From a virus (Duplodnaviria > Caudoviricetes), in IMG/VR virus record IMGVR_UViG_3300046170_000009, positions 1 through 50,203 of that record: DNA of 50,203 nt; one strand, written 5' to 3'. The translations under genes were made by a program, and so were the position numbers. Of this stretch, positions 42,515 to 50,203 are shown in pieces (position 1 is the stretch's first letter; each line of letters starts with the position of its first letter). The notes under the pieces are model-generated. The model had not been told where the DNA came from. It searched no databases and was given only the letters and a program-made list of their open reading frames with translations.

Positions 42515-42737
42515 TTTGTTCCTTTTGTCTTTGATTCACTTGATCCTTTAAAGTAAGGAGGTTAGCCAGAGAACTCGCTTTCCCCTGCTTGCGGAACATC
42601 TCCTGTTCCAATGTTGCCGTCGCCAGTGCCTGTAACTCCAGCATCCGTTGGCTCTGGAGGTACTCCTTCAGGGGTTCCCACATTTCCGGGTTGTTGACTA
42701 AGGGGATCAGCTTGTTCGCCAGTTGCTTGTCCAACAT
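42504..42737 (-). CDS. small helical head-module protein overlapping the portal 3' end
   Basis: LIPLVNN..W..L..FRKQGK..L pattern of small post-portal genes. Confidence 0.65.
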   Translation of the reverse strand: MLDKQLANKLIPLVNNPEMWEPLKEYLQSQRMLELQALATATLEQEMFRKQGKASSLANLLTLKDQVNQRQKEQNDG

Positions 42738-44731
42738 TATTTTGCATTCCTATAATTTGTGCGGCTATTGCCGCTTCTTCGGGATCATTTAGTATTTCAT
42801 CAGGATCAAGATCTAAACTATATGCTAGTTCGCTAATAAGCTTTGACATTTTAACAAACGGAGCAATAGCAGGATTTTGAGCAGTCTGAAGAAACATTGT
42901 CAATCGTTGACTTCTTACTTCCTTTTGCATAAGGCTGTTAGTACCCATAGCCTTAATTTCTAAATCACCTTTAGTTTTTAATTCACCTTCAAAGAATTGC
43001 ATATTCCATTGGAAGTATGCTTTACCCAAGGGCTTTAGCAAAAAATCGTCTAGGTTTTTTACAACTGTTTTAATATTTAGTGATGCGGCTCCAAGCAACA
43101 TTGACATACCAGATGCTGTACGAGTCATGCTTTGTACGCCTGTCTGACCATGTGAATAACTAGGAATGCCTGTTTGTTCGTCTGCAAGCTGTCGGAACTT
43201 ATCGAACATCATTAAATTTTCTTGAGATGTGTTCGGAAACTTTAGACCATGAATTGCTTGGCCTTGCATTCCTGACTGACGCCTGAAGACTTTGCCCGGA
43301 TAAATTTCCATGCTTTGTCCACCAACAAGCATAGTCTCATCTACGTCAAAAATTACTGAGCCACTTAACGCCAGATTATCAATAGCCATTCTTGCATGAC
43401 CATTCATAATCTGTTGACTATCATTCATGTTTTCAGCAACGCCTACACCAAAGAAACTGTATGGGTTTCTCTCGTATGGGAATGCGTTGTAGGGAATACG
43501 ATGTGGCGTAAAGGGATTAACAACAGCCCTGAGTACAAGGCCATTACAAATCCAAGCATTAATCTGTATTTCATCAAGAATGTCTACCTCTTCTGGAAGT
43601 TCAATACCAACATCTTTAGCATACTCTGCATCCATTAAGCCCCAGTACTCAAGCACTTCAAAACGACTAGCACCCATATCTGCCATGCGTTGATCGTCTT
43701 TTAATTCGTACTCGTAGTCTTCTTCTGTGTAGTTGGGGCCAAGCATCATACAATCACGAATAGCATCTTCGTTAAAGTATGGCATTTTTCGTAAGGCTCT
43801 CAGTTGAGATTTGTTTAGCTTGTGTCGGTGTACTATATACTCACACTCTTCAATAGATGTTGCATTAGGATCAGGAAAGAAATCCCAGACACTTACAAAT
43901 TCAATGCGCGGTACACGAATAGAAACAGGTGTATACTCACGACCTTCCTTCATTATCTTCCCACGTATGTAAAGTCTTATTAAAATTAAACGGCCCTTTT
44001 ACAATACCTGTACCAAAAAGAGCAGATTCAAAAATGGCGTTACGCATTTCAGTAGAACCACTAGACTCATCAATTTGATCGTGAATGAGTTTTTCCATAT
44101 TCCTTGCGGCTTCTTTAGCCGGTGAAATTTCAGGAATATTTGGAATGGGGCTTGGGCCTTCAACAAATGTAACTTGATCACTTTTTTCAAAGTCTTCAAA
44201 TATACCTTCACCACTAGTCAACCTAGCTCCGGGTTTTAGTACACGACCATCTCCAGCATAACCAACACCACCTTCTGGACGTTCTTCTTGCATAGGCGGT
44301 TGGGGGGTTGCGTTTGCTTCGATACCGGGAGCGGCTTGATCATCAAGGTGCATATACTCACTAACGCCTTCGGGCAGTGGAGTATGCGCTACACCAATTG
44401 GAAACTTACCTGTACCAAAGATTACGTCTATTAGCTGTCCATAGGCGGCTAGTACTTTAGTCTTTGTAACTTTAATAAATACACGAGACTTTTCAGATTC
44501 TCTAAACTTTACGTTTTTAGGATATAGTCCACGAAAATTATGATACGCAGTCATCCAACGATTTTCGTCAGAATCTTTTGCCATTTTAGAATCTGTAAAT
44601 CTTGCTTCAACAAGACCAGCAAGGTTTGATTTAATCTGAGCATCTGCATTAATAGATAAACCATCTTCACCCTCTACTGGTTCAAAGTAAAGATTATTAG
44701 CACTATCAATTATTGTATTGTTTTCTGCCAT
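42562..44731 (-). CDS. portal protein, split by a probable 1-nt frameshift near 43949
   Basis: ORFs 43937-44731 and 42562-43953 join if one base is removed; TKTKVLAAYGQ, FGTGIVKGP, VSVWDFFPDP, TRTASGMSML; follows TerL. Confidence 0.85.
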
Positions 44732-44733
44732 GT

Positions 44734-44844
44734 TTATCCTATTGGTGTTAGGCTAACGAGAGAATAGATAAGTGTAAAACCTACAACAATACCTAGACTA
44801 TAAATTCCATAAGTGTTTAGTGGTCGCCAAACTTTGTGCTTCAT
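44734..44844 (-). CDS. small single-TM protein (36 aa, not in ORF track)
   Basis: TAATG coupling to the TerL stop; hydrophobic IYSLGIVVGFTLIYSLVSL. Confidence 0.55.
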   Translation of the reverse strand: MKHKVWRPLNTYGIYSLGIVVGFTLIYSLVSLTPIG

Positions 44845-46526
44845 TAATATCCAAACGTCCCATCTGCTGGTTGATAAATAGTCTCACGGTGTAATCGACG
44901 CATACGACTAAACGTATCGTCTATGCGTGGCCTAGACATAATTAAATACCTCAACGCATCATACGCATGGTCTGGTGCGTGGGTATTAACATCTTCAGGA
45001 TTGTTTTTATCCAGAGGAATACTTTGTAGTTCGCGTATCAGGTTAGGACAAGTATTAAATATTTGTAATTTGGGCCTTCCGCTTTGCTGAACTTTTAAGT
45101 ATTCGTGGATTTGAATCTTTCCTGCAACTCTGTTTTTATCTGCTCGTCGTAGCTTATGTCCAGCTTTGACAAGCGTTTCTCCAACTGTTGGGCCTGTCTG
45201 CCCTGTGCGATTCCAACACGCTGTATCTAATACGCCCGGAACGCTCATTGGATCATTTAGTTCCATTTCTGCTATCAAGTGAGCTAAGTCTGTAGCTAAT
45301 AGTCCTTTACGATAAAGTTCTCTATATATTATTAACGTATTATCGTCCCGATCTATTGCACCCCAAACACAAGCTGATTCTGAAGCGTATCCATAGTCAA
45401 TGCCTTTTATACGATCCCAGTTTATAGGAATTTCAAAAGGATCAATAATATGAACATCTCTGTCGAACTCTGTGAAGGCCGCACCTTCTGCAACCTCCCA
45501 ATCACCTTCTAGTAGTTGTCGTCGTTGCGTAGGTGGCAACGCCTTCAACATTTGTTCGTAGCGTCCGTCATGAGCAAGGTATGGATTATCTTCTAGCCTT
45601 GCTGGTATAAACTTACGGCTTAGGCCGTCTTCACCCTTAAATGATTCGTTAGGCGGTGAAGGAGTAATATATCTTTTCTTTACCCAATGCGCTCCAACAC
45701 CACCGGGGTTAGCGGTACACCGCATATAAGGTATAATCTCTGGATCTGTTGTACGCAGTCGTGAAGCCAAGTAGTTCCAAGAAAACTCTGTAGCTTGGTG
45801 CGTAATCTCATCAAATCCAATCCAACTATACGCTTGTCCTTGGTAGCGATAAACATCTGCATCTCTCTCCAAGAATCCAAATTCTATTTTAGCTCCAGAC
45901 GGAAAGTTCCAGAGCTTCTCTACTTCTTTGTACTTACAACCGGGAAAGGCTTTCGGGTAGAGTTCACGAGATTTATCTATGAGTTCACGTAACTCTGGCA
46001 TAGAACGCCGCAGGATTAATGCCCTATGCGCGGCCCGATGAGCATAACGAAGAGGGTCAACCAGCATCGCGTAGCTCTTGCCTCCACCAGCCGCACCACC
46101 ATACAAAACATCAGTCTCAGAAGCGGCGAGAAAGTCAGTTTGTGGCCCAGTGTTAGGCTTAAAGATGACATTCTCTTCTGCGACAGTCCTTAACGCCTTG
46201 GGCAAATCATCCGTGGATGTTGTTGTAATTTTGCCTTCAGACTTTGCCTCAGTTCCTTCTAATTTATTTAAAGTACTCTTAGAAGTGTCAAGCGACCTTT
46301 TATAGTTTTCTAGCTTGGTGCGTACCTGCGCTAATCGTTTTTCTTTCTTTCGTACAGTTTTCCTTGCGTCGATCTTGGCCTTGGTTTCGGAGTGGTAGTT
46401 GTAGCCTCGACCTGACGAACCTTTGGGTCTGCCAGTTTTCTTACGAGGTGTTCCATCCTTTTTAAGTATAAAATCCCCGTTGTCGTCTCGCATATACGCA
46501 TCAGGGTTTTCCTCCCAATCACTCAT
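44844..46526 (-). CDS. terL: terminase large subunit with N-terminal basic extension
   Basis: Walker A YGGAAGGGKS, Walker B IGFDE, TANPGG, nuclease GIDYG and DHAYDALRY. Confidence 0.93.
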   Translation of the reverse strand: MSDWEENPDAYMRDDNGDFILKKDGTPRKKTGRPKGSSGRGYNYHSETKAKIDARKTVRKKEKRLAQVRTKLENYKRSLDTSKSTLNKLEGTEAKSEGKITTTSTDDLPKALRTVAEENVIFKPNTGPQTDFLAASETDVLYGGAAGGGKSYAMLVDPLRYAHRAAHRALILRRSMPELRELIDKSRELYPKAFPGCKYKEVEKLWNFPSGAKIEFGFLERDADVYRYQGQAYSWIGFDEITHQATEFSWNYLASRLRTTDPEIIPYMRCTANPGGVGAHWVKKRYITPSPPNESFKGEDGLSRKFIPARLEDNPYLAHDGRYEQMLKALPPTQRRQLLEGDWEVAEGAAFTEFDRDVHIIDPFEIPINWDRIKGIDYGYASESACVWGAIDRDDNTLIIYRELYRKGLLATDLAHLIAEMELNDPMSVPGVLDTACWNRTGQTGPTVGETLVKAGHKLRRADKNRVAGKIQIHEYLKVQQSGRPKLQIFNTCPNLIRELQSIPLDKNNPEDVNTHAPDHAYDALRYLIMSRPRIDDTFSRMRRLHRETIYQPADGTFGY

Positions 46527-46743
46527 AGCGATCTACAATCTTTTTTAAACCAGTATGAGATATAGTTCTATCTGTATCATACTCTAACCAAGTAGCCGCT
46601 TCACGTAAAGATAAAACTTTATTTTTAACGAGAGGAACGATTTTATTGAGAGCTTTTAGTTCTACTTCTATTTCCTCTAAGTGTTCACCATCTTCCATTA
46701 GTTTATAACCAAATGGGATGGTACTGCTACTACGCCTCTTCAT
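46519..46743 (-). CDS. small DNA-binding protein resembling the recombinase (DNA-binding) domain of large serine recombinases
   Basis: IPFGYKL..E...LSLREAATWL..ISHTGLKKI; no catalytic domain. Confidence 0.55.
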   Translation of the reverse strand: MKRRSSSTIPFGYKLMEDGEHLEEIEVELKALNKIVPLVKNKVLSLREAATWLEYDTDRTISHTGLKKIVDRYE

Positions 46744-47122
46744 ATTGACCCTCTATAACTACCTCCTGTTTGGCTGGTAGTATAAAGAGTCCGTTTGTAT
46801 TTTGCAAGTTTACGTCTAGTTTATCTGTTTTAGATATGCCTACACGGTCTAGGACTGTCTGTGCGGCCTGTAAACGGACGTTAGCTTGGGGTATGGGGTT
46901 AGTACTGTCCATAACCTCAACAAGCTTTAGAGAGGCTTTGGGGGCATTCTGAGCTAATATATTCTCAGCTAGTTCTATTATCTCTGTTTTAAGGGCTTTA
47001 ACTACGGATGTATAAGAGCCTTCAGCATACCCCGCTAATTCTGCGGCACGTTTAGTATCACCATTGCAAGATACAAGGTTATCTAAAAACGATTGTTGCA
47101 TTATAGTTAATTCTTTATTCAT
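46730..47122 (-). CDS. terS: terminase small subunit
   Basis: LT..QQSFL..AAELAGY HTH, RLQAAQTVLDRVG, GLFILPAK; first gene of the late arm. Confidence 0.75.
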   Translation of the reverse strand: MNKELTIMQQSFLDNLVSCNGDTKRAAELAGYAEGSYTSVVKALKTEIIELAENILAQNAPKASLKLVEVMDSTNPIPQANVRLQAAQTVLDRVGISKTDKLDVNLQNTNGLFILPAKQEVVIEGQYEEA

Positions 47123-47130
47123 AACTATAC

Positions 47131-47159
47131 ATTATATAGGTGATATGGGGTTTTGTCAA
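47131..47159 (-). promoter_or_regulatory. perfect sigma70 promoter driving the structural arm
   Basis: TTGACA (47159-47154), 17 nt, TATAAT (47136-47131). Confidence 0.88.
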
Positions 47160-47200
47160 GTAGTGTTTATAGTGTTTTATGGTATTATTTGGCATAAGTC

Positions 47201-47229
47201 TTGACAAAATAAGAATCCAAGTATATAAT
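47201..47229 (+). promoter_or_regulatory. perfect sigma70 promoter, divergent
   Basis: TTGACA (47201-47206), 17 nt, TATAAT (47224-47229). Confidence 0.88.
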
Positions 47230-47851
47230 AGATTATGTAGCCCACCGGGTACATATACATTTGCATAGCCGCCCCTTCCTTTAAAGTCTTTAAAGTGGGG
47301 CAACAAACTGGTTGACATTCAGAATCTTTGAAAATGTAGAAGTATGAGTGTGTATGGGGAGGGGAGGGGGTGGCCTCCTGCCTAGTGGGGTGAGACATTC
47401 ACGGCATGAATGATCTACAAAGCCTTATCAGTCTCGTGAATGCCAACAAAAAGATATTTAGAAATAGCAAAAAGTTATAAAGATTTTGAAGTCTCCCGCG
47501 CCTATTCATAAACTAAATAAACTTTAAAGATTCATTAGTCTTGTGAATAGTGGTGTACAGTCTCCAGAGATCTTCAAAGACCTATCAAAATATTTAGATA
47601 TATCTAAAAACTCTATAGATTCAGAAGCTTATAAAATTAAAGCATACCCCATCATAGTCTCTTTTGACTCATTAACTGATCAATTTTTAACCAGTTAAAC
47701 CCTATCAGGGCGCACCAATCACGCCACAATGGGCGATCTATTTTTAAAGGCCTTACCCTTACTTTTAAAAGCTTTTAACTGTGGCGCTCTCTAGAGATCC
47801 TCAGCGATTCCACTGGTTATTTTTTAACCACTAAAAACCCGCTTTTTAGAC

Positions 47852-47868
47852 TTGGCACACTTATTGCT
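47852..47868 (+). promoter_or_regulatory. sigma54 (-24/-12) consensus site
   Basis: TTGGCACACTTATTGCT; GG-N10-GC spacing exact. Confidence 0.65.
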
Positions 47869-47870
47869 AA

Positions 47871-47887
47871 TGCAAATATCATGCCAA
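47871..47887 (-). promoter_or_regulatory. sigma54 (-24/-12) consensus site, inverted partner
   Basis: Reverse complement TTGGCATGATATTTGCA; GG-N10-GC spacing exact. Confidence 0.6.
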
Positions 47888-47998
47888 AAACCCTCAAAAT
47901 TATTTTCTTTTTATGGTAATATTTTAATGTACTTTTATCTTTAAAGGGCTCAATATCACTCATGTGGTATCCCATTAATTGATAAAAGGTATTTTGAC

Positions 47999-48469
47999 AT
48001 GACAACTTCATTATCTGATTTTAATCGCGAATCCGGTTTCGCACTTATAGACGCTATAAGACAAGTCAATCGCGACACGCGGAAAGTCTCTGCGGCTGAA
48101 CAGGATTTTTTGAGAAAGGGTTTAGTAGCATGGACGCAAGAAAAGACGCGGCAGGATGCCGAGGCGATTTTAGTTGAGTACTGGCAAGCAAGCATTGCTG
48201 ATGATGATGATGGGCCCGCGCGTACTGAACCGCAAATAAGGGCGGCATTTCATACGGCATCGGAAACAATCCATGAAGTCACGGGAGGCGCTGGTGTTAT
48301 TGTTGACGATAACAAACTAGTCCTAGCAAAAACCCGCAAGACAAAGCATACCCCGTTTCAGAAGGCATCAAAGCTTGTTTTGAAGGATTTAAAGAAGCTA
48401 TCACCCGAACAGGATAAAATGCTCGCCGAGATCCTGCTACGCGCCTACGCTGAAATCAAAAAGGGCTAA
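47999..48469 (+). CDS. first early gene, hypothetical
   Basis: 156 aa ORF after the long non-coding region; AAGG upstream. Confidence 0.7.
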   Translation: MTTSLSDFNRESGFALIDAIRQVNRDTRKVSAAEQDFLRKGLVAWTQEKTRQDAEAILVEYWQASIADDDDGPARTEPQIRAAFHTASETIHEVTGGAGVIVDDNKLVLAKTRKTKHTPFQKASKLVLKDLKKLSPEQDKMLAEILLRAYAEIKKG

Positions 48470-49572: not shown

Positions 49573-50203
49573 ATGTCTAATGTACATTCGATATTCCAAA
49601 GACCCACACCTTCAATCTTTGATGAGGGTTATGGGCCTGCTGATTTTCCTGTGGCAACTCGCCCAATGCTTTTCTTCAATGATGACACCGATCAATGGTA
49701 TGAATCATCAAAGGTTGCAGTAGTCCGTACAGATACCATGCAAGAGCTAGGTGTGCATGGGAAAAACTACAAGCCTGTTGCACCCAAAGAACTTATACAG
49801 GCCCAGCGTGATATCATCATGCGTAGTGACTTGGAAACTGGTGGTATAACTGAGCGTATTGAGACTGCCTATCACGGCGCGGCTACGTTTGTAAAGTATC
49901 GCTTACCTGAGCATACTTATACTACGCCTGACGGTGACACAGCTTGTCTGACCCTGCTGGGTGTAACCTCGTTGAACAGTACATTTTCTTTTCTTATGTC
50001 TGCGGGTGCTCTTCAATCCGCTTGCTTCAACGGGCAAGTATTTGTTGGTGGAGCGGCGGCTTTGTTCAAGGCTCGACACACCAAGAACCTTGATATACAA
50101 GCGGCGGCTAGGTCTATCACAAAATCTCTAGAGGTTTTCCAGACTGAGCAAGAGCTATGGGCTGAGATGTATCGGACTCAGGTTACAGCCAAGCAAGCCA
50201 TGT
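49573..50203 (+). CDS. DUF932/DUF945-like phage protein, 5' part (continues across the window end into 1-317)
   Basis: AGGAG then ATG at 49573; open to the window end (631 nt) and in frame with 1-317 if circular; motifs VVRTDT..LGVHGKNYKPV and CFNG resemble DUF932. Confidence 0.75.
   Translation, partial: MSNVHSIFQRPTPSIFDEGYGPADFPVATRPMLFFNDDTDQWYESSKVAVVRTDTMQELGVHGKNYKPVAPKELIQAQRDIIMRSDLETGGITERIETAYHGAATFVKYRLPEHTYTTPDGDTACLTLLGVTSLNSTFSFLMSAGALQSACFNGQVFVGGAAALFKARHTKNLDIQAAARSITKSLEVFQTEQELWAEMYRTQVTAKQAM

Follow-up and report, generated by a model that had tools for sequence, protein, structure and literature searches.

Face-to-face sigma54-type sites between the divergent gene arms of an uncultured marine podophage and in other uncultured phages

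The stretch of DNA analysed here (hereafter the window) is the whole of IMG/VR record IMGVR_UViG_3300046170_000009, with 50,203 bases and a G+C content of 41%. Between its two divergent gene arms the window carries two exact matches to the sigma54 promoter consensus, placed face to face on opposite strands. The cores of these two sites are conserved selectively in related contigs, whatever the distance between the sites, and the pair recurs at the same type of gene junction in many other phages. The pair belongs to a widespread phage element for which we found no description in the literature searched. From these patterns we infer that sigma54 reads the sites and that transcription initiates at the pair. 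We regard sigma54 as the probable reader, and we give an about even chance to the element being a compact crossed bidirectional sigma54 promoter between the divergent arms.

Genome organization and the control region

The large terminase of the phage shares 66% identity with those of the Pelagibacter phages HTVC115P, 103P and 104P, and 44–51% identity with those of the Roseobacter CRP phages and Puniceispirillum phage HMO-2011. These identities indicate that the phage is an uncultured marine podophage of the HMO-2011 type. A search of deposited phages, in either near or distant mode, gave no DNA similarity to the pair region. The genes are organized into two divergent arms: a − strand packaging and structural arm, in the order terS, a 74-codon gene, TerL, portal and structural genes, and a + strand arm for early functions and DNA metabolism, which begins at 47999 and, since the record is permuted, resumes at the left end of the window. 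Genes of the + arm encode MazG, a primase-helicase, a family-A DNA polymerase, endonuclease I and ribonucleotide reductase (Pfam/PHROG). Pfam and PHROG scans of the window's proteins named no RNA polymerase, and the host's polymerase must therefore be used. No tRNA genes are present in the window, nor are Rfam families at gathering thresholds. The genes and control elements around the pair are as follows.

44844–46526, − strand: TerL, the next large gene of the packaging arm
46730–47122, − strand: terS (small terminase), first gene of the − arm (PHROG 2538, E = 1.5e-5)
47131–47159, − strand: consensus sigma70 promoter (TTGACA-17-TATAAT, 12/12 match) facing the terminase arm, kept in relatives
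47201–47229, + strand: consensus sigma70 promoter (12/12 match) facing right, 650 nt upstream of the pair
47814–47830, no strand assigned: palindrome TGGTTA-N5-TAACCA, a candidate binding site 23 nt upstream of site 1, kept in 7 of 8 aligned sequences
47999–48469, + strand: first early gene (ORF, 156 aa), with no Pfam or PHROG family

Between the arms, a gap of 875 nt (47123–47998) holds two back-to-back sigma70 promoters as well as the pair, which has terS 730 nt to its left. Nearly all TerS relatives share the first ~260 nt upstream of terS, i.e. both sigma70 promoters and a conserved element, and 81 of 85 related upstream regions have a match to TTGACA-N16–18-TAnAAT no more than 400 nt from the start of TerS. 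The homology upstream of terS breaks at ~47385, and the early modules differ beyond this point. Between the rightward sigma70 promoter (47201–47229) and the pair, no intrinsic terminators are predicted on the + strand, and transcripts from this promoter would cross the pair. The TGGTTA-N5-TAACCA palindrome, of which there is a looser copy at 47675–47702, is part of the conserved left flank of the pair. Small parts of the window are represented in 16 RNA runs, and contigs from four runs cover only 46700–47096, inside terS, and thus no part of the pair.

A degenerate third sigma54 site had been proposed at 47190–47204 (+ strand) in a preliminary description of this DNA. We rejected this candidate: its −12 element reads TTGA and has no GC, and its TGGCAY is kept in three of eight aligned sequences (the window, L004 and L023), compared with eight of eight for the overlapping TTGACA. 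It is merely the −35 region of the 12/12 sigma70 promoter on the + strand.

Sequence and geometry of the two sites

The pair occupies positions 47852–47887, which read TTGGCACACTTATTGC-TAAT-GCAAATATCATGCCAA. The two sites and their predicted starts are as follows.

47853–47868, + strand: sigma54-type site 1, TGGCAC-ACTTA-TTGC-T, exact consensus match
47871–47886, − strand: sigma54-type site 2, TGGCAT-GATAT-TTGC-A, exact consensus match
about 47879 (+ strand) and about 47860 (− strand): predicted starts, 12 nt beyond the C of each GC (−24/−12 geometry)

Site 1 has its GG at 47854–47855 and its GC at 47866–47867, and points right to the first early gene. Site 2 has its GG at 47885–47884 and its GC at 47873–47872, and points left to a repeat-rich spacer and the terminase/structural arm. 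The face-to-face pair with exact GG-N10-GC spacing that had been described is thus present as two exact matches on opposite strands within 47852–47887. Its placement ahead of the first early gene holds for the early arm and was incomplete, as the pair heads both arms: the + site precedes the first early gene by 112 nt, and the − site faces terS.

Exact matches to TGGCAY-N5-TTGCW occur at sites 1 and 2 alone in the 50,203 bases, compared with 0.19 expected, and one of 100 shuffled sequences gave two. The 7 one-mismatch matches across the window compare with 3.83 expected, and the rest of the genome is therefore at chance level. A 15-bp motif, TGGCACnnTTnTTGC, has been derived for binding by the E. 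coli RpoN holoenzyme alone (PMC8743547). Site 1 fits the motif as given there at 13 of 13 specified positions, and site 2 fits it except at two, with T for C in the −24 box and A for the second spacer T.

On the established −24/−12 geometry of sigma54 promoters, the starts predicted near 47879 and 47860 would be separated by 19 bp, with each −24 box inside the first transcribed bases of the other transcript. This geometry would give divergent transcripts rather than colliding ones. For an inter-site gap of g nt, the predicted separation of the starts is 23 − g, i.e. 16–20 bp at the common gaps and 7 bp at a gap of 16 nt. We also tried the pair as face-to-face sigma70 promoters, with TTGGCA as the −35 element, and rejected this candidate: the would-be −10 element falls in the partner's variable N5, and a 12-nt insertion seen in relatives breaks the spacing.

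Conservation and variation among relatives

From the 204 related stretches found in a scan with TerS, the 80 best were used. Among these best 80 of 204, the pair is present in 7 of the 66 TerS-related loci with at least 800 nt of upstream DNA, and all 7 share the window's early module. Two more contigs that carry the pair were found through the first early protein, which gives nine related contigs in total. Across the window and these nine contigs (10 sequences), the 20 core columns are all invariant (20/20), as against 4 of the 10 N5 columns, with only 1 of 5 in site 2. In the flanks, 2 of 40 columns are invariant on the right and 21 of 40 on the left, and the left site in relatives keeps extra bases, TTGGCACACT, outside the sigma54 core. 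The preliminary description had named conservation of the GG/GC positions in related genomes as a check; neither these nor the other core positions vary in any of the 10 contigs.

Seven contigs have 4 nt between the two sites and three (L023, L026 and L085) have 16 nt, whereas the GG-N10-GC spacing within each site is constant in all 10. Therefore the unit of selection is the single bipartite site. Invariant cores together with drifting spacers and a variable gap indicate two bipartite sites that are read independently, rather than a hairpin or a rigid dimer operator, and sites 1 and 2 are sigma54-type sites under selection. In four relatives (L023/L085, L031 and L038), an extra + strand site, TGGCAY-N5-T[C/A/G]GC, lies just before the early gene with GG-N10-GC kept.

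A homologue of the 156-aa protein (40–95% identity) is encoded next downstream of the pair in all nine pair-bearing related contigs, and none of 87 related loci has the 156-aa gene without the pair where upstream DNA is present. The 156-aa protein is small and helical; an AlphaFold2 model built on nine sequences had a mean pLDDT of 53.9, too poor for a fold search, and the ESM Atlas matches are unnamed viral clusters only. In two contigs (L005 and L006) TerS is 100% identical to that of the window, and no pair is present within 1,400 nt upstream; their homology to the window stops at ~47385. The pair is also absent from five of five cultured HMO-2011-type genomes, in which one single site was found among all five. 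With 7 of 66 loci and none of the five cultured genomes carrying it, the pair is therefore dispensable for HMO-2011-type phages.

Recurrence in other uncultured phages

IMG/VR was scanned for the face-to-face pattern with any gap of 2–30 nt. The pair is present in at least 119 other viral contig stretches; these IMG/VR counts are lower bounds, and contigs from one phage population may count several times. Among the matches listed, 118 new loci hold 148 pairs, 116 of them with gaps of 3–7 nt, which are 5 of the 29 allowed values. The same listed loci (1.0 Mb) contain 557 exact single sites. Five whole records of 58–354 kb have 10–20 sites each, mostly within a few kb, compared with 0–1 for a reversed control pattern.

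Positions that were not part of the search are informative about the type of site. In 227 distinct unpaired sites among the matches listed, T precedes TGGCA in 67%, a purine follows TGGCAY in 94%, A or T follows TTGC in 92%, and N5 positions 3–4 are T-rich. This is the sigma54 recognition pattern, also in the longer published consensus. These unsearched flanks reproduce the E. coli RpoN-holoenzyme motif TGGCACnnTTnTTGC (PMC8743547).

Several arrangements of the sites occur, and the face-to-face pair is one that is favoured. In control scans, close tandem pairs were found in 89 stretches and close back-to-back pairs in at least 120, and the general phenomenon is therefore one of dense clusters of sigma54-type sites in phages. 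Since all close arrangements are common, many sites overlap and are unsuited to simultaneous polymerase binding.

The gene context of the pair recurs in many of the listed loci. In 54 of the 118 listed loci a TerL family is present and is directed away from the pair in 55 of 55 cases, at a median of 1,306 nt. Among the same matches listed, TerL is preceded by a 141-aa family (away from the pair in 34/34, median 445 nt) and by an M15 endolysin (20/20), and is followed by an SU10-type portal (25/25). On the other side of the listed pairs are divergent small ORFs, mostly singletons, a layout like that of the window. The window's TerL belongs to another family than that of the 54 loci, and its portal is homologous to theirs. 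TerL of the 54-locus group shares at most 26% identity with any deposited phage, and two other large ORFs gave no match. On a crude ORF map, 38 of the 74 listed pairs located between two ORFs separate divergent ORFs; such maps are noisy, with 273 of the 557 sites falling within some ORF of at least 70 codons. For 183 unpaired sites among the matches listed, a gene start within 250 nt lies in the direction of the site in 45 cases and opposite to it in 30, which is a weak bias. The k-mers enriched near the listed pairs are sigma70 boxes (CTTGACA and TATATAA) and G-runs, as in the window, and a k-mer search near these pairs gave no shared enhancer motif.

Arrays of 3–4 pairs with a period of 41–47 nt are present in non-coding DNA of several contigs among the matches listed, and the portal of the array-bearing contigs shares ~25% identity with HMO-2011-type portals. 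In six contigs (L106, L112, L121, L130, L139 and L145) the arrays mostly consist of 3–4 pairs with a 47-nt period (e.g. L106, 3466–3639), and L179 has two pairs. These seven contigs are distantly related to HMO-2011-type phages, and their arrays lie ~1.3 kb upstream of TerL. Dense clusters are also found in a complete 94-kb record (G002:C1:16582-19611) and in a 354-kb jumbo record (G004:C1:77432-81481), with 16–17 exact sites in 3–4 kb each; six sites of the former lie in tandem on one strand, ~55 nt apart. Neither an activator nor a sigma54 gene was found in these two records.

Of 149 pairs in bacterial genomes, 19 have fully complementary N5 spacers, and most occurrences of the pattern there belong to a Leptospira repeat family or to true hairpins. 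Outside phages, the pattern by itself is therefore not diagnostic. None of the phage genes described above is present at the bacterial loci with the pattern. The repeat of saprophytic Leptospira has a 34-nt core, TGGCAT-N5-TTGC / GCAA-N5-ATGCCA, within longer conserved flanks, and occurs about every 1 kb on many short contigs (among L210–L328, e.g. L222, 1204–6943).

Taken as a whole, dense sigma54 clusters with crossed pairs and arrays may be a common, undescribed trait of uncultured phages, and may mark the junction of the variable early genes with the terminase/structural operon in a large group of marine podophages; we put this forward tentatively, as possible rather than probable.

Alternative explanations of the pair

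Several explanations other than a sigma54 promoter must be weighed. One is that some other DNA-binding protein of the phage or host has a sigma54-like target, e.g. the 156-aa product acting as an autoregulator. The 156-aa gene shows perfect linkage to the pair (10 of 10 contigs), the product is small and helical with no known family, and TTGGCACACT is kept at the left site beyond the sigma54 core. In addition, the nearest cultured relatives infect SAR11 (and are without the pair), and the SAR11 genome of LD12 strain LSUCC0530 is reported to have no annotated RpoN, so that a possible SAR11-like host would be without sigma54. Against this, a profile of the 156-aa family found no homologue in 8,052 ORF pieces from the 118 other loci with the pair among the matches listed, a gap of either 4 or 16 nt is unsuited to a rigid dimer, and the flanks of the 227 listed single sites reproduce the sigma54 motif. 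The same site is also found across phage records of 58 to 354 kb and 33–57% G+C, and this spread therefore points to a universal host factor. We thus consider another binding protein unlikely, and the unrelated dimeric protein site suggested earlier is disfavoured by the variable gap and by recurrence in unrelated phages that have no 156-aa gene. It is likewise rather unlikely that the sigma54 holoenzyme binds the pair and does not initiate, serving as a gate or roadblock for sigma70 transcripts, as an insulator, or as a sink for sigma54 in site-rich phages. The consensus sigma70 promoter at 47201–47229 does point across the pair, and no terminator is predicted in between, an activator gene is absent from the window and five other records, overlapping arrangements are common in every orientation, arrays of pairs with a 41–47-nt period lie in non-coding DNA, and single sites show only a weak bias in direction (45 versus 30). 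However, the pair heads operons and does not end them (TerL 55/55 and the 141-aa family 34/34 away from it among the matches listed), four relatives carry the extra + strand site ahead of the early gene, and two sites per genome would make a poor sink in this phage. To our knowledge, no elongation block by a sigma54 closed complex has been demonstrated, which also counts against a roadblock.

The two remaining explanations do not involve sigma54. A pac site or replication origin, read by the phage TerS or an initiator, would fit the position of the pair 730 nt upstream of terS and upstream of the terminase operon in 54 of the 118 listed loci, the repeat-rich spacer, and the deposited ends of the related HTVC115P record, which lie 589 nt beyond terS, within the corresponding intergenic region. 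This explanation is nevertheless very improbable: L005 and L006 have an identical TerS and lack the pair, the motif is unchanged between the window and the 54 loci although their TerL families differ, and the site-rich clusters found elsewhere span several kb. A structural hairpin in RNA or single-stranded DNA, acting as a processing or termination signal in the manner of REP-like repeats, appears extremely improbable. The strand of the pair does fold as two short helices around a 6×6 internal loop (−11.1 kcal/mol, z = −3.6), and the bacterial pattern often consists of true hairpins, as in the Leptospira repeat family and the 19 of 149 pairs noted above. The fold, however, arises because the core positions form a dyad. 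The N5 spacers of sites 1 and 2 are non-complementary, with one Watson–Crick pair among six mirrored spacer positions, and in the listed viral pairs a mean of 1.5 of 5 positions pair, compared with 1.25 by chance. The stems are invariant and never covary, which bears out the earlier statement that the pair is not a simple hairpin, and unpaired single sites carry the same extended motif.

Proposed mode of action

Sigma54 promoters give no transcription before an ATP-driven activator has acted on them. If the pair is a sigma54 promoter, host polymerase with sigma54 would sit on it in either orientation. With the −12 boxes 4 nt apart, the two binding modes would therefore be mutually exclusive, making the pair an either/or two-way promoter. 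An ATP-dependent activator would then remodel the closed complex. Rightward transcription would start near 47879 and run through the 156-aa first early gene and the DNA-metabolism arm, and leftward transcription would start near 47860 and run via the repeat-rich spacer to the terminase/structural arm. It counts against the promoter reading that consensus sigma70 promoters already face both arms, that the five cultured HMO-2011-type genomes and most TerS-related loci lack the pair, that single sites show little bias in direction, that close overlapping arrangements are common, and that the nearest cultured relatives infect SAR11, one genome of which has no annotated RpoN. Neither an activator or sigma54 gene in the six phage records nor a shared enhancer motif was found, which also counts against it.

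The source of the activator can be narrowed by what the phages encode. Six-frame searches of the window found neither the activator domain PF00158 nor the sigma54 DNA-binding domain PF04552, PF00158 is also absent from five other site-rich phage records, and no classical activator or sigma54 gene was found in the six records examined. The preliminary description, which saw no enhancer-binding protein in the window, is borne out on this point, and the activator is therefore presumably a host protein. The absence of both genes from the six records would mean that these phages use a host enhancer-binding protein, or else a new activator or sigma54 modifier. In the first case the phage programme would be coupled, through that host protein, to host physiology; in the second, the new activator or sigma54 modifier would be among the phage's uncharacterised early genes. 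A link to nitrogen control, also suggested earlier, finds no support in the control region, which has no NtrC-box-like site; the two such sites in the window (at 3 mismatches) lie elsewhere and are at chance level.

Comparison with known systems and significance

The sites resemble bacterial sigma54 −24/−12 promoters in both the GG-N10-GC spacing and the extended flanks (E. coli motif TGGCACnnTTnTTGC, PMC8743547). They differ in that the two sites interleave in a face-to-face arrangement and have −12 boxes only 4 nt apart, that neither an enhancer site nor an activator was found, and that their control region lies beside consensus sigma70 promoters. Divergent sigma54 operons that share an enhancer are known in E. 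coli, i.e. zraP/zraSR and hyc/hyp, where the promoters are back to back with the activator sites between them. As in these systems, two sigma54 promoters would serve opposite operons from one control region; unlike in these systems, the phage promoters cross, and there is no room for an enhancer between them.

Bidirectional sigma70 promoters may offer another parallel. According to two reports (bioRxiv 10.1101/2020.01.31.928960 and PMC12825309), their opposite-strand elements coincide, their divergent starts are separated by at most a few tens of bp, and binding in one direction excludes binding in the other. The symmetry of those promoters, as described there, lies in a shared −10 element, whereas the phage pair consists of two complete bipartite sigma54 sites that cross. 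The term sigma54 has no occurrence in the preprint (bioRxiv 10.1101/2020.01.31.928960). Operators of dimeric phage repressors likewise have dyad symmetry in an early control region beside a small early gene. In contrast to such operators, each half-site of the pair is bipartite (6 + 4 bp with 5 free bp in between), the spacing of the two halves varies by 12 nt, and the motif is common to unrelated phages.

Among phages, Pseudomonas phage YuA, which has no polymerase of its own, is reported to depend on sigma70 and sigma54 promoters (bioRxiv 10.1101/2023.10.13.562163), and this is the one case of phage use of sigma54 promoters found in the literature searched. The window's phage is like YuA in having no polymerase of its own; the two are otherwise unrelated. 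The YuA record has no exact TGGCAY-N5-TTGC site and no pair, and its 2 one-mismatch sites compare with 6 for the reversed control. A putative sigma54-like protein has been reported for Pectobacterium phage Q19. Our literature search, whose coverage extended to few subscription journals, returned nothing on crossed sigma54 pairs or on clusters of sigma54 sites in phages.

If the promoter reading is correct, hundreds of uncultured phages would use the host's enhancer-dependent sigma factor. Sigma54 promoters at the head of the gene arms would provide an on/off switch tied to a signal, which could come from the state of the host or from a phage product. In that case the crossed pair would be to sigma54 what the symmetrical bidirectional promoter is to sigma70, and it would represent a very small two-way regulatory part that is tightly off, as well as a sequence marker for rpoN-bearing hosts.

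Other features of the window

The spacer to the left of the pair (47386–47850) is shared by the module-bearing relatives and is full of short repeats, which include inverted repeats of CATTCA/TGAATG, palindromes of the form CTTTAAAG, and TTTTAACCA in two copies with a flanking dyad; a block of GCCACAATGGnCGAT is also conserved. The spacer resembles a region with many protein-binding sites or an origin. Further left, a conserved non-coding element (47236–47385) extends from the predicted start of the rightward sigma70 promoter and is present in nearly all TerS relatives. RNAalifold gave no consensus structure for this element on a gappy alignment of 56 sequences; the element has a 5′ hairpin, ATGTAGCCCACCGGGTACAT, whose arms change together in distant relatives. 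At 47355–47372 there are G blocks, GGGGAGGGGAGGGGG, in place of which some relatives (e.g. L037, L050 and L054–L056) have a run of C blocks of the same length, so that the homopurine tract is on the other strand. In unrelated viral loci among the matches listed, the 250 nt around the pairs are likewise enriched in G-runs.

In the early arm, an ORF cut off by the right end of the window (49573–50202) contains a DUF932 domain (Pfam E = 3.9e-15). In the − strand arm, the portal gene is apparently split into two overlapping ORFs, 43937–44731 (264 aa) and 42562–43953 (463 aa). Both ORFs of this region (42562–44731) match a single portal ORF of ~725 aa in L101, and the split could reflect a frameshift, an assembly error or programmed slippage.
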